Shown here: positions 35,421 to 42,619 of the stretch, piece after piece
How the letters are laid out: each line of letters opens with the position of its first letter
Numbering within the stretch: position 1 is the stretch's first letter
Source: Schmidtea nova
Lineage: Eukaryota
Length of the DNA stretch: 64,000 bases
Direction: 5' to 3'
Assembly (NCBI GenBank): GCA_044892505.1
Contig: CM097883.1
Coordinates: forward strand, 37,014,001-37,078,000
Translations under genes and position numbers: made by a program
The notes under the pieces: model-generated
Told to the model about the DNA's origin: nothing
What the model saw: the letters and a program-made list of their open reading frames with translations, nothing else
The model's database searches: none

Positions 35421-36973
35421 ATACTAGATGAAGTGAATTTAATTCAATGAGCGTGTTTTGAATTGGAATTCGAACTCTGATTAGTTCTAGTGTTTTGCAT
35501 CCAGTTTAAGTTCAATTCCCTGATAATTTCATACACAATTTGTAGACTTTATATTCGGTTATAAATTTATGCGATATGGATTTGAAAAGCAAACCAATTT
35601 ACTCAAAATCATTGAGTGGTCCATGCAAGTAAGGATTACAAGAGAAAACAGGCAATAAATATTCTTATCAATGAATTTATTATTCATCAGAATGATATAC
35701 ATTACAAATTAATTAATTAATTAAATGATTGTTAATAAATTTATATATACTATATTGTAGAGAATTGTATGCTAAATCTAAAATATATTTAAATACAAAA
35801 AATATTTAAAAATTATTTTTTTTGCACGCAAAAGTAAAACTTTTGAAAATTATTTACATGTAGCCTTGTATAGTGTTTGATTCTTTGTTGAATCATATTT
35901 AAATAAATTGAAAAATATTTCATCTACATGTAAAAATATAAATGTGCTGAGTGTACAATTTTAAAAATGATCACTTTTATTAATGTTAAATGTCATCTTG
36001 TAGATAATTTTTTAACGAGTCTAAGATATAAATAAAAATATAAATTGAAAAAAAGATTTGGTCGTTTAAAAAACTAAAACTAGCGAAGTTCTTTGCACCA
36101 GGTTGTGGGGCACACATTTTAGAGTCAAACAAGGTATGGATGATTAAATTCTGTCAAGTAGATCACTTGTAAATCGCAAATAATTGGATGTCAATAATCA
36201 AGTGCTAAACATTAAATAACAAAGATTTGATCATATTTACATTTAAATATTTTTGCACTTTTCTGCAATTGATTGCACATAGGGATACCAACCGTACTAC
36301 TTTTTTAAACCTCCGCCTCTTTCGTCTAGTATTAATGCAAAATTAGATTTATTTTTTGTTCAGATAAATAGTAAGGCAGAAGAAAAATTTTTAGCTTTAA
36401 AACATTACCATAGTTATAAATCCTGCGACTGTTCAACAAATTAAAGAACAATGTTTTTTGTCGTTTACAAAATGGGTTTAGGAGGGATATCATTGGAGTG
36501 GGTTTTCCTCCACATATTTTAAATAATTGCGTGCAGCATGAACTAGATGGCTTACCTTTAGACGTGGAATCGATAATTTGAAAAATATATTAATGTTTTA
36601 AAAGATTTTGATGATTTCGTTGATATCGCATATGTTGGGCCCGCCAAATCACCTAAAAGCACAATAAAAGAACGAAAGTATAAAATAATAAGGAAATAAT
36701 AAACATAAAAATGACAATAAAAACAAATTAAAAATAAGAATAAAATGACAAATAATATTTGATAAGTTTCCAGTAAAAGGAAATTTTGAAAATAAACCGG
36801 TAAACAACAGCAAAAGGGGGCCTGAAATAAGAAAAGATAGAATTAAATAAACTAATAGTACAAATAATTAATTAATTACTCGAAAAATCGGGACCACCCA
36901 GCGAGAAACCGGAAAAGGAAACAAAATAATGTTTAGGTTTAAATAAAATAATAAAAATACTTTGAAGGACGGT

Positions 36974-37017
36974 CTGATCCTGATTGGTCAATCCGACCAG
37001 ACGGATCAGTATAAATA
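36974..37017 (+). promoter_or_regulatory. Putative promoter: overlapping ATTGG/CAAT inside a ctgatcc/ggatcag inverted repeat, then TATAAATA
   Basis: ctgatcctgattggtcaatccgaccagacggatcagtataaata; equivalent CCAAT+TATA layout at ~12800 (-) and ~48650 (-). Confidence 0.6.
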
Positions 37018-38082
37018 CCGATCCGAAAATCACAACAGACACACTGTTTTTTAACTTACACAAAACCTACAATTTTTATTATCAAGACTAAACTTTGATT
37101 TTAAGAACACTTTTCTGTGACTTAAGAGTACATTTTGAAATCTTATTCTCGCACCGGAAGATAACTACGAAGTAAAATTTGTTTGATTTTTTATTATGTA
37201 AATTTTGATATGTACCATGATTTCATTTATTAAAGTTTATTTCTGTATTTAATTATTTTATTTTATCATCATTATTTATCATGCATATAGTTATGCTTCC
37301 TAGGCTGCTAACGCGGCGAGGGAGTCCGAGTCGTCGTTGTGGGGCTTCACGGTCTCACATGGCGGTTCAACCTTTTTATTTTTTTTATCAATTTAGTAGT
37401 TTGAACCAGTTGAATTAAATCAGGAGAGGTTGAAAATTTAAATTTAACCCAGACGTTTATTAGCGAGAGTGAAGAGTCTTGATGGTAAATTAATTCCATG
37501 CTTATTTAGTCGAGTAAAATCATAAGTCACGAAATATCAATAATACGATCAAGTCCAGACGGTTTTCTGGCGATAATTAAAAATCATCATTCGGTTGTAC
37601 AGAGGGCGTATCATAGCAGGCAGCAGGGAAGGTCTACTAAGATGCCAGGAGGGGTAAAGTACCCGATAGACGTCAGGTACCCGAGACAAAGATGTCGACA
37701 CACTAGGGTTAAATTTGAGTACGAGAGAGCAGGTGTAGCATTACAAGTTATGAAATTTTTTCAAGTTAATCGATCGAAATGGTGATTTTCAATGGAGGTC
37801 AAGGTACAGGATATCGCAACTGCGTGACAGAGACTAGTAAATTCCAATCTAATAAAACTGAAAATTTGTAAATTCTAAAAATATTCTTATGCCGATCGCT
37901 GTACATAGCGCGGTAATTCAAATTAATCTTATCCTGATCGTCGTACATGGCACAGGGAAAACAAATATCTTATCCGACCGTGGTATATCGCGGCGAGGAT
38001 TTAATAATGAAATTGTATTAACTAAAAGAATTGAGATTAAATAGAATTTATATTCAAATTTTTTAAATAAAATAAACGACAG

Positions 38083-39329: not shown

Positions 39330-39568
39330 ATGAATTCTCGTATTATTGTCATTGTTGTTGTTTATCTAAAATAGTTTAGTTAATAGAATAAATAATAAGA
39401 TACCTGTAATATAAAAAATATAAAATTATAATACAAAATACATAAGAAAGGTAAATAAATAATTAAATAAGCACTATGTTAGAAAACATCAGGCAGAATG
39501 AGTGATGTCAAAGATAAATTTTCTGAAAGTTTATTGTGGAGTACATAGCAGATGATTAAAGCGTAAGT

Positions 39569-39637
39569 CCTTCTAACGGCAGCAATGAACCCGTAAACAT
39601 AAATGGGGAGTAGTACTAGCAATAGTGCTCACCTGCC
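39569..39637 (+). ncRNA. Candidate conserved structured RNA motif (three-way junction), copy 2
   Basis: ggcag/ctgcc (with tga/tca), cccgt/atggg and agtact/agtgct stems; aligns to 6303-6371. Confidence 0.5.
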
Positions 39638-42619
39638 CATCATTGTTTAATCACCATGCGCATCACCAACTTGATTATCTAGGGAAATAATCAAGGGCGC
39701 TTGAGTGTATAATTGAAAATTTATGTATGATCATGGATGAGGGATCCCTAGCCATTTGTTAGAACCTTTTTCATCTAACCCCTCCATGAACCCAGCACAT
39801 ATAAGTTGTTGTTTCACTCAAAAATGCGATGACTGTCTTTATTTCCTGCAGTATATAGAATTTTGCAACTTTATTCAGCGTTTAGATCTTACTTTTTGTC
39901 GCACACTCAGCGCCCCATAATAATCAAAAAAATTGTTGAAAACGCACTTATTGAGTGCTATTTATGGTTCATTTATTCTTTAATGTATGTTTTCCATTCA
40001 AAAATAGAAAGTATGGAACAAGAAAAAAATTCCTTAATGGAAATAAGCGAAATATTATTTTCCATAGAAGAAATATTTATACAAAGAAGAGATAAGGAAT
40101 TTATTCCATTAAAAGTAAAAGAAATTATTCACTCTAATAACGATCAATCGAGAAGCCAGTAATAAAAAATGATTTAATTCACGTATATGAAAGAGGATTA
40201 GAATATTTAAAGTTGTGGACTTACTACTTGGATGAATTTAAAGTCTTTAAATGGATGTTGCTAAGAAGTAAGCCAGAGTGGGACGAAATCCAAGATACAG
40301 TACAATATTTATCAAAAAAAGAGTAAATATAAATGAATCATTATTGTTTGATCAATCTATAAGGTTAAATCATTTTTTATACCAAAAAATACCTTGTGAG
40401 GAATTTTCAAAAAACACAGTGCGGATAAATGGACAGGTTATTTTAAAAGTTGGAATTTTATAATTATTGCTTAAATAATAAAGAGCTTTTATTAGAAATT
40501 AGAAATAAAGCTAAATATCAGTTTGAATAAGTATTTATATATTATGTATTGTTATTTTGCATACAATTTGAAATTGTATTTTAATTTTGTTTTTCAAAAA
40601 TTTTGAATTTAATGTTTTGTTTAATTTTTTATTTTAATTAAAATAAATAACTATATTTTTTTGTAATTTTGTTCTTTTATTTTTTAATTAAAAAGTGAAG
40701 CGACTTATTTTCGAGTAGTTTTTGAATTTTCATACCCTCTATTTTGTTGTATTCATTTTTAAATGTTATCAGTATGGTAACCCTAATTGCACCTAAAAAT
40801 CAATACTATGGTGTGAAGTACTTTGTTTCATCGAAAATCTGAACAATTCTACTTGTAAACATAATTTGCATTTTTGCATTTTTTTACACTCATAAATAAT
40901 GAAATGAAACATACATCACAAGTTTCAACAATACTACCTGAATATCATGTTTGTACTCTGTTAAACATTTTTGACAAAAATTCTATTTTTAAAAAGCACA
41001 TTTATTTAGAATTGTAATATAAAATTAAATACTTACAAATATCAAGTAATATTTAGTCCAACTTATAAAATCTTTTGCCTTGTATTAGTCCAACTTTCAA
41101 TGAAGATACGAAAGAGTCGTGGTCATAAATATTATTTGTCTTTTCACAAAGAATATTTTTTGCAAAAACAATTTATCAAAAAAGTTAATTTTTTCTATTT
41201 TATAGGGAGAGTGGGGCTCGAAAATTTATGGAGAGTTAGAACCCTCACAAGTTTTGAGCGAAAGCGATAACTCAGTGTTTCCCAACCTGGGCGATTTGAA
41301 ATTTTAGGTGGGCGATGTTTTTACCATGTTGTTTTTGCATATGTCAACCTTTTTGCAAATCTCAGAGATACGAAAACTTTGTTATAATTCATTTTAAAAA
41401 TGTTCATCTTTCAAAATCTCTATATTTTTGCAAACAATTTTTCAAAAATTTCAAGCCCTCAAACTATAGTGCGATAAAACAAAACACAAAATTGCACTTT
41501 TTGGTACCATTTGTCACGCAAAATCGTGATTAGGACTTTTAGAGTGCAACGGGAACATTGTGCTTAAAAGTGCCCTCACTACATTGAAAAATAAAAAGTG
41601 CACCTTAGCACAGTGAAAATTTTCACACTGCACCTAAACATAAATATTCAAATTTACAAAGTTTTCACGCGTTTTTTGAAAAGTGGTATATATTATTAAT
41701 AGAGGGTAGAGGCGCTATAACTGGTAGTGAGTTAGAAAGCTTACATCTACCTACTTTTAATGTATTTTATTTATTGAAAAAATAGTTTTATAAAATATCG
41801 AATTTAAGATCATCCATTATAAACCATATTCATTCATTATTCCTTCGAGGTTATTCATAGTCATATTTATTAATTGTAATTCATTATCAATCATTATTAT
41901 ATACCAATACAAAATTTTGATAGTTCCTCAAACAATTCTTGTAAATCTAACACCGAAGAGGAACTGCTGTGCAATTATAAAACTCATGAGTTGCATAAGT
42001 GCATTTGAAAACATAACTAAGAGACGTTTATGTTAGGGATTGCAATACCGGTAGTACAGTTTGAGTCATTTTTTACATGTTTATATTAAAAATTGAAATA
42101 ATTGTCAAGCTGTTATTTACAATCAAAATTTTCTACAATTAATTTTCTATTAATTTATCTGCATATAATTGCTTGCTTCTGTTTCTTTCTCTATTTTCGT
42201 AAGTTTTGATTTAAATTTTTATAATTGTGGTTATTGATTTTTTTCATATTGAATTAACCTTCAACGAATAAAATAAAACCATTATCAATTCGTCTCCTTG
42301 GAAATAATTTGAACAAGTCATTGCAGCAACTGTATATAAGGGTTGCATATTCATTAAAAAAGTTCATATAGAATCAACTTGCTGAAAAGAAATTCAACTG
42401 ATATTCATCTGATATTGATATAACAAAAGAGACCAGCTACAATCACGTCATACTTTTTAAAAAATGTCGATGATTTCTTATCAGTTGTTATTTCTTGTAT
42501 GATGATTAAAAATTCTTTGCGAATAAGTAAATTACACATTGATGATTTTGACAGTCAATGACTCTAAACAGAAATTGATGGGGGTTCAACAAACTTGAGC
42601 AACTGATGAAAGATTACCG

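Follow-up and report, generated by a model that had tools for sequence, protein, structure and literature searches.

The unit at positions 36633–39797 of a 64,000-nt stretch of the Schmidtea nova genome (GenBank assembly GCA_044892505.1, contig CM097883.1, positions 37,014,001 to 37,078,000 of the forward strand; hereafter, the window) is a solo long terminal repeat (LTR) of a giant Gypsy element, and this LTR holds two protein-coding genes, A and B, maintained by purifying selection in the transposing lineage. The two open reading frames (ORFs) are likely spliced alternatively from one leader and likely regulate the RNA of the element, with B predicted to act like the retroviral protein Rev. 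The probability of this reading as a whole is put at about 0.55.

The unit as the LTR of a giant Gypsy element

The unit starts with TGTTGGG at 36633 and ends with CCCAGCA at 39797, and CATA flanks it on both sides, so that the TG...CA ends and the perfect 4-bp target-site duplication (TSD) described by the first-pass annotation of the window are in place. The boundaries and the TSD are exact because three paralogues of the host repeat without the insertion, found elsewhere in the genome, carry one CATA each and translate DIAYK(K)LL(F/Y)(H)SKT(R/P)W across the empty site, which also bears out the earlier statement that excision restores the frame of a hAT transposase. The empty site is spanned as well by one contig of sequencing run X2, which joins both flanks; the four sequencing runs compared behave like DNA libraries, with the flanks covered and, in one loose end, what we take to be a Nextera-type adapter. 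Among 15 of their 20 joints, none connects leader and ORF in the GT..AG manner, a result that, in DNA libraries, has no bearing on splicing. Around the unit, the transposase frame is decayed and has stop codons on both sides within the window. The search of the flanks by tblastn with another hAT of the window gave no match, and the host repeat was identified instead through its paralogues, whose HSKTRWLS-type and downstream NANVERVFS-type motifs presumably belong to a hAT transposase.

A genome search with the unit returned 106 matches, 40 of 3532 candidates having been scored. Exact patterns detected 607 LTR 5′ ends, 103 junctions of the internal region with the 3′ LTR and 340 junctions of the LTR end with the primer-binding site (PBS), many of the latter from a gag-only sister family (see below), with 0 for the reversed control in each case. 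Seventy loci were examined, i.e., the 30 best matches and 40 taken in order from the list of 607 ends. Both LTR ends were present in 56 of them, including 45 solo copies, seven copies followed by the PBS and four standing after the internal 3′ tract. A perfect 4-bp TSD was found in 40 of the 45 solos, in none of which (0/45) it extends to 5 bp; among the five others, one had a single flanking base in sequence. Several pairs of LTR 5′ ends are spaced at about 26.5 kb.

Element E2 (G000:C1:301527619-301557345, minus strand) is 29,727 bp long and has LTRs of 3261 bp, 99.4% identical, with ACTC on its flanks. Element E1 (G000:C3:148749454-148808868), flanked by TTTA, is a second copy of this element, extended to 59 kb by two nested insertions; its LTRs share 99.1% identity with each other and 86% with the window unit. 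The two nested insertions are related to one another (86–88% alike, about 13–16 kb each), and their ORFs are presumably Maverick/Polinton-like. Matching 4-bp flanks enclose three more pairs of LTRs, and since these are 99.5–99.97% identical (all pairs: 99.1–99.97%), the family has moved recently.

The Pfam scan of E2 (E 0.01; 16 ORF pieces of at least 130 aa from one frameshifted copy) gave the order RING, zf-CCHC, Monjiviricetes fusion domain, RVP, RVT_1, RT_RNaseH, Integrase_H2C2/rve, Ank and then zf-TRAF/MATH, the fusion domain (PF24664; E 4e-18 and 4e-15) lying between zf-CCHC and RVP. The PBS starts 6 nt past the end of the 5′ LTR and is an 18-nt match to the 3′ end of a genomic tRNA-Pro(TGG) gene plus CCA. 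Genes for tRNA-Pro(TGG) also form a tandem array with a 308-bp period at G000:C1 ~459.61–459.65 Mb (L135), and the T-arm pattern has 1113 exact matches in the genome. Before the 3′ LTR of E1, E2 and the sister elements stands, in the place of a polypurine tract, a conserved GC-rich, partly palindromic tract, not a pure purine run.

Overall, the unit falls into the definition of a solo LTR, a form that arises through recombination between the two LTRs of an element. The first-pass annotation had proposed just that, naming pairs of copies around gag-pol and a table of TSDs as its checks, and both came out in its favor, with direct-repeat pairs in E1 and E2 and with reproducible termini and TSDs. 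Its alternative was a self-contained, integrase-mobilised, non-autonomous element of the Ginger type. TG...CA ends and 4-bp TSDs are common to such elements, and most copies of the unit do stand alone; however, near-identical direct pairs bracket a full gag-env-pol, with one TSD per pair and a tRNA PBS after the 5′ copy, which refutes this alternative and leaves it with a negligible probability.

Two genes within the LTR and their relatives

In the window copy, the ATG of ORF A directly follows a CAG and that of ORF B stands 1 nt after another one, as had been stated earlier for both ORFs (0–1 nt past an AG acceptor). ORF B of this copy is interrupted by an in-frame stop at codon 35 (38835–38837), on which the first-pass annotation is silent. 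Selection was analyzed in 47 copies, i.e., the 56 mentioned above less four second LTRs of pairs and five copies under 2.9 kb. The ratio of non-synonymous to synonymous polymorphism (pN/pS) was obtained from single-base codon variants, either shared by at least two copies or private to one. Shared variants gave 0.16 for ORF A (185 synonymous, 97 non-synonymous, 3 stops) and 0.10 for ORF B (243 synonymous, 88 non-synonymous, 1 stop), in comparison with 1.47–2.66 in shifted frames and 0.69–1.14 in the non-coding ends. Private variants gave 0.58 (A) and 0.65 (B), with 6 stops in 134 and 7 in 135, respectively; without selection, a stop fraction of about 4–5% is expected. Since private stops come close to the neutral rate and shared variants are constrained, the selection operates in the transposing lineage, and the solo copies appear to decay neutrally. 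By a motif-based count, either ORF is open over its full length in 30 of the 47 copies.

A and B are, thus, protein-coding genes of the transposing lineage, and the purifying selection on both upholds the earlier claim that the LTR carries its own accessory genes. Of the further claim that each solo LTR spreads a complete mini-locus, the anatomy stands; the completeness does not, given the broken ORF B in the window, the mere 21 of 47 copies with both ORFs open and the near-neutral private stops. That A and B are chance open frames in the GC-richer part of the LTR is highly improbable. Their language-model recognition scores do lie under those of known families, and no homologue was found outside this genome, but the purifying selection is frame-specific, lengths and starts are conserved, the order of the two recurs among their homologues in a distant family, and the AlphaFold predicted local distance difference test (pLDDT) is about 77 for both proteins.

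This distant family, family 2, has the same CCAGCA end and the same PBS, and its homologues of A and B are roughly 13–29% identical. The order A, B and motif 2 (a structured RNA element, see below) was found in two of five PBS-linked copies (F1 and F3); F4 has A only, and F0 has a fragment of B. Among 20 LTR/PBS junctions that were unmatched by the 5′ pattern, 17 have another LTR end, two belong to a diverged subfamily bearing A and B, and one is rearranged. One ORF B homologue apparently downstream of a PBS (L098) was discarded as a nested LTR fragment of another family. Those examined among the 17 have LTRs of 1.4 or 1.7 kb that lack both A and B yet hold motif 2 and the PBS, and the 1.7-kb type has motif 1 in addition. 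Three complete sister elements of 13–14 kb with 4-bp TSDs contain a gag-like ORF about 49% identical to that of E2 and no pol match inside; the abundance of the family amounts to 644 exact 5′ ends. Such a family, keeping the motifs without the proteins, fits motifs that would act in cis and proteins that would act in trans. Long AT-rich degenerate repeats lie between PBS and gag in the sister elements L114–L122 (G000:C1 ~5.56, 51.56 and 126.75 Mb).

In the window copy, ORF A and the post-stop part of ORF B contain no Pfam family, and the proteins A and B gave nothing above the cut-off in Pfam, no usable match in the ESM Atlas, only compositional matches to PDB sequences, and no match in a search of 5.8 billion proteins, which took in near-query lengths only, with fused forms outside its scope. 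The profile of A, run against 1.84 billion representatives, had five matches (E 1e-4 to 6e-4); two were inspected and rejected as tandem-repeat surface-type proteins. A is predicted to be an alpha/beta protein (AlphaFold pLDDT 76.7, predicted template-modelling score (pTM) 0.70) of basic composition (25 K+R vs 11 D+E). For its fold, Foldseek found no match at E 0.001 in PDB and BFVD, and the best VIA Z of 3.8 concerned the N-terminal helices only, the beta part being barely covered by the comparison. B was modelled from an intact natural copy (L008; pLDDT ~77, pTM 0.30), with long helices predicted over residues 2–114, a low-confidence linker and, in the C-terminal part, a helix that bears an Arg-rich motif and leads into a Leu/acidic tail. 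Across LTR families, the Arg-rich motif and the Leu-rich tail are retained at ~28% identity.

RNA processing signals and structured RNA elements

The CCAAT and TATA motifs reported by the first-pass annotation are present, the former in reverse, and would serve as the promoter. Identity among the 47 copies is 0.85–0.93 as far as ~37033 and 0.2–0.5 from there on, outside the motifs and the ORFs. The subfamilies have an aligned donor-like GT block in common within the leader. The start of A is immediately preceded by YAG in 47/47 copies, and a YAG lies 1–2 nt before the ATG of B in 45/47, the background rate of YAG before ATG being 10–13% of all ATGs. In family 2, TAG abuts the start column of B in seven distinct loci. 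The internal accessory ORFs of E1 (RING, 118 aa, TRAF and 353 aa) have their ATG 2–3 nt past a YAG, with a different RING acceptor in E2. Three accessory ORFs lie in the internal 3′ region of both elements (E2, 28274–31029; E1, 58523–61519), encoding a 118-aa protein, a TRAF-like protein with RING/zf-TRAF/MATH and a coiled-coil-like protein of ~350 aa; E1 and E2 share the acceptor-before-ATG design in these ORFs. AATAAA is found at the stop of B in 47/47 copies, in the same 20-nt bin. These signals point to one leader exon that is probably cis-spliced to alternative acceptors and, with less confidence, to a long coding repeat (R) region ending after B. In the middle segment (37390–38070), pairwise distances between copies correlate poorly with those of the rest of the LTR (Spearman 0.16–0.48), which suggests exchange between subfamilies or saturation.

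Spliced-leader trans-splicing occurs in flatworms, and A and B might be expressed in that way from a polycistronic LTR transcript instead of by cis-splicing from the leader. The acceptors abutting the ATGs would suit it, as would the AATAAA that follows A in 27/47 copies, ~170 nt before the next acceptor, in an operon-like arrangement. A donor-like GT block conserved within an otherwise hypervariable leader speaks against it, as does the acceptor-to-ATG spacing of 0–3 nt, in which the frame is not kept, and trans-splicing is regarded as distinctly unlikely.

Motif 2 is the best conserved part of the LTR (p-distance 0.046) and is present in several distant LTR families. For this element, listed as a conserved RNA motif by the first-pass annotation, RNAalifold predicted two stem-loop domains from 21 aligned sequences, with compensatory change in 20 of 26 pairs. 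Pairing cells reached 91.3%, as opposed to 29–48% in slid controls and 74.4% in shuffles (0/500 as high), a test in which the relatedness of sequences can inflate pairing without structure. The folding z was -2.4 on the window strand and -1.6 on the opposite strand. Homologues of motif 2 were also seen in the flanks of L003, L026, L028, L104 and L110, in LTR fragments unrelated to the unit at the DNA level; therefore, this RNA element is widespread among the Gypsy families of the genome. Covariation in motif 1 is weaker, with compensatory change in 5 of 25 pairs. The hairpin array upstream of A has one to four hairpins in 47/47 copies compared to 0–8/47 in six control segments, with a pattern chosen after inspection. 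The GC-rich patches previously taken for mini-exons lack a conserved acceptor and look like hairpins when folded; motif 1 was rejected as a mini-exon since its upstream AG is not conserved. Scanning of the whole unit against Rfam to E 5 gave only an unrelated weak match to MEG8_1 (16.5 bits, cut-off 70). Inspection by eye also took in the known ribozymes hammerhead, HDV, twister and hairpin, none of which came up in the Rfam scan.

The features of the unit and of a second, decayed LTR in the window are listed in Table 1. Elsewhere in the window, there is a hAT transposase in three pieces at 7153–9542 (Dimer_Tnp_hAT, Pfam), a 598-codon open frame without Pfam match at 4280–6076 (minus strand) and a MULE transposon at 52735–55461 with 15-bp subterminal repeats and an open FLYWCH/MULE transposase of 461 codons.

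Table 1. Positions of the LTR features in the window; U3, R and U5 denote the unique 3′, repeat and unique 5′ regions of an LTR.
Feature	Positions	Strand	Remarks
Solo LTR	36633..39797	+	3165 bp, TG...CA; from a ~29.7-kb Burro-like Ty3/Gypsy element
TSD, left copy (CATA)	36629..36632	+	single CATA in empty paralogous sites
TSD, right copy (CATA)	39798..39801	+	
Putative U3/promoter	36633..37032	+	mean p-distance 0.07–0.12 among copies
Reverse CCAAT (ATTGG, 36983) and TATA box (TATAAAT, 37010)	36983..37016	+	putative promoter motifs
Putative non-coding leader exon	37033..37171	+	hypervariable; ends at the conserved donor-like GT block, GT at 37172
Motif 1, two-hairpin element	37296..37371	+	in the putative intron; retained also by the gag-only sister family (1.7-kb LTRs)
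Array of related short hairpins	37890..38000	+	upstream of the ORF A acceptor
ORF A	38083..38559	+	158 aa, open; basic, alpha/beta (predicted); YAG abuts ATG
ORF B	38733..39329	+	198 codons; predicted coiled coil, disordered linker, Arg-rich motif, Leu/acidic tail
AATAAA, candidate polyadenylation signal	39325..39330	+	overlaps ORF B stop; would mark the R/U5 border
Motif 2, two covarying stem-loop domains (39603–39640, 39652–39707)	39561..39760	+	in all related LTR families seen
Family-2 LTR, decayed, 3′-truncated	9780..13100 (approximate ends)	-	A and B homologues; cut off at motif 2 start, adjoins hAT element

Proposed function and comparison with known systems

An element of ~30 kb was inserted in the integrase manner with a 4-bp TSD, its solo form would have followed by LTR–LTR recombination, and A and B have been conserved as proteins in the transposing lineage. 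RNA polymerase II would probably start near 37030–37045, and the leader, ending at the donor at 37172, would likewise be joined to one of several acceptors placed 0–3 nt before an ATG, those of A, B and the four internal accessory ORFs. The RNA would then rather probably end at the AATAAA after B, giving an R of ~2.3 kb with both genes, with motif 2 in U5 and on the genome-length RNA only. More tentatively, B may dimerise via its coiled coil and bind motif 1, the hairpin array or motif 2 with its Arg-rich helix, thereby promoting read-through or export of the unspliced genomic RNA, whereas A might be its partner or a transactivator. By analogy, B is a possible Rev-like regulator of this RNA, an assignment held at somewhat under even odds. 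The gag-only sister family would use A and B in trans, and the solos would be decaying by-products. It is more doubtful that an entire regulatory circuit, consisting of two spliced genes without known relatives, a Rev-like B and structured RNA response elements, has moved into the ~2.3-kb R, with intact solos as trans-supplying transcription units that the sister family parasitises.

Several observations weigh against the proposed splicing and the Rev-like role of B, apart from the limit of the shuffle test given above. The splice junctions, start site and polyadenylation site are read from sequence signals only; the donor-like site in 44/47 copies comes from a permissive scan without control; and, since the AATAAA overlaps a TAA stop and the genome is AT-rich, part of its conservation is imposed. 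No feature was found by which the 5′ LTR could avoid polyadenylation. Family 2 lacks the donor-like GTAAG with which motif 2 begins, and the sister family has 0–2 weak matches to the hairpin array per LTR. The family-2 copy F2, a 5′ LTR before a complete Burro-type polyprotein with reverse transcriptase/RNase H ~75% identical to E2, has no A or B match. As to B itself, protein, Pfam and PDB searches gave no homologue; among Rev-like families, Pfam REV was touched by 1/26 members at E 0.013, a value attainable by composition alone; and the Arg-rich stretch may merely be a nuclear localisation signal.

The last possibility is part of another explanation, according to which A and/or B act at the level of DNA or chromatin as a transactivator or anti-silencing factor, for which foamy-virus Tas, HIV Tat and plant VANC are models. 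It is in line with the basic composition of A, with the much stronger conservation of U3 compared to the non-coding parts that are transcribed, and with the repression of planarian LTR elements, including BURRO1, by SMEDWI-2 in the covered part of PMC8532177. No DNA-binding fold was found for A, in a fold search that barely covered its beta part, and the strongest non-coding conservation resides in base-paired elements downstream of the promoter, which makes this explanation fairly unlikely. A and B might also be host-directed cargo for cell survival or signaling, like the RING, TRAF and ankyrin modules, the LTR position only raising their dosage. The element does have several host-like accessory ORFs of the same acceptor-ATG design, and an IAP-like (inhibitor-of-apoptosis-like) region of Burro1 is reported second-hand to protect stem cells (PMC13465017, as far as covered). 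A and B, however, resemble no host protein family, and the solos are seemingly not preserved by host selection, so that the cargo explanation is less likely still.

With two selected genes downstream of its own promoter, in hundreds of copies, the LTR could remain a source of regulators for full-length and non-autonomous elements even in the solo form, which is usually regarded as a dead end. The arrangement also offers a possible answer to how an intron-containing genomic RNA of ~27 kb escapes splicing and leaves the nucleus. Burro1 reportedly matters for planarian stem cells (second-hand in the covered part of PMC13465017), and products encoded in the LTR could either confound such findings or account for them. 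Moreover, the unit adds a covarying RNA element outside Rfam and two protein families for which no relatives are known.

The full-length element matches a Burro-like giant Gypsy, to which it is likened by the description of length and domain layout, not by sequence. In the covered part of the review PMC6431247, Burro/GYPSM1 likewise has ~30 kb with LTRs, a gag zinc knuckle, protease, reverse transcriptase, RNase H and integrase, accessory ORFs, an env-like fusion domain between gag and protease, ankyrin repeats, and RING and MATH/TRAF modules. The difference is that MATH/TRAF is here a separate ORF downstream of the polyprotein, and the BIR, BCL2- and dUTPase-like domains found by HHpred in that review did not occur in the Pfam scan of the E2 pieces of at least 130 aa from one decayed copy. 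The text of the review, to the same extent, makes no mention of ORFs or RNA structures within the LTRs. Nor was a description of either inside Burro LTRs found in the literature covered, which leaves outside Grohme et al. 2018, Lee et al. 2026, the Repbase GYPSM1 entry, figures and supplements, where the ORFs may already be annotated. Overall, the class of element is known, and a two-gene cassette downstream of the promoter with covarying RNA elements in an LTR appears to be undescribed within that literature.

An LTR usually has no coding function, and in the known retroviral exceptions the ORF stands upstream of the promoter. The LTR-overlapping ORFs sag, nef and bet lie in or over U3, out of reach of the promoter of a solo LTR; in the present unit, in contrast, both ORFs are downstream of the TATA box. 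Retroviral Rev, Rex and Rec are encoded by small spliced regulatory ORFs, combine an Arg-rich motif with a Leu-rich stretch after it and work with structured cis elements of the Rev response element type. B is similar in the succession of an Arg-rich motif and a Leu-rich stretch, the motif being present in both families, and its RNA binding is putative. The rice elements Retrosat2, RIRE3 and RIRE8 and the plant aORF elements, as far as PMC3485330 and PMC7264820 are covered, share LTRs of more than 3 kb and extra ORFs under selection with no function assigned, and Retrosat2 has a predicted R region of ~2 kb; their extra ORFs, however, are internal, lying either before gag-pol or in the interval from pol to the 3′ LTR. 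A system comparable in function is Cer1 of Caenorhabditis elegans (PMC10309623, covered in part), an LTR retrotransposon whose spliced mRNA yields a nuclear protein, CERV, needed for export of the unspliced genomic RNA. By description, CERV is large, has three domains and contains a Cys loop, in contrast to the 198-aa helical B encoded within the LTR, and it provides a functional precedent for the model proposed for ORF B.

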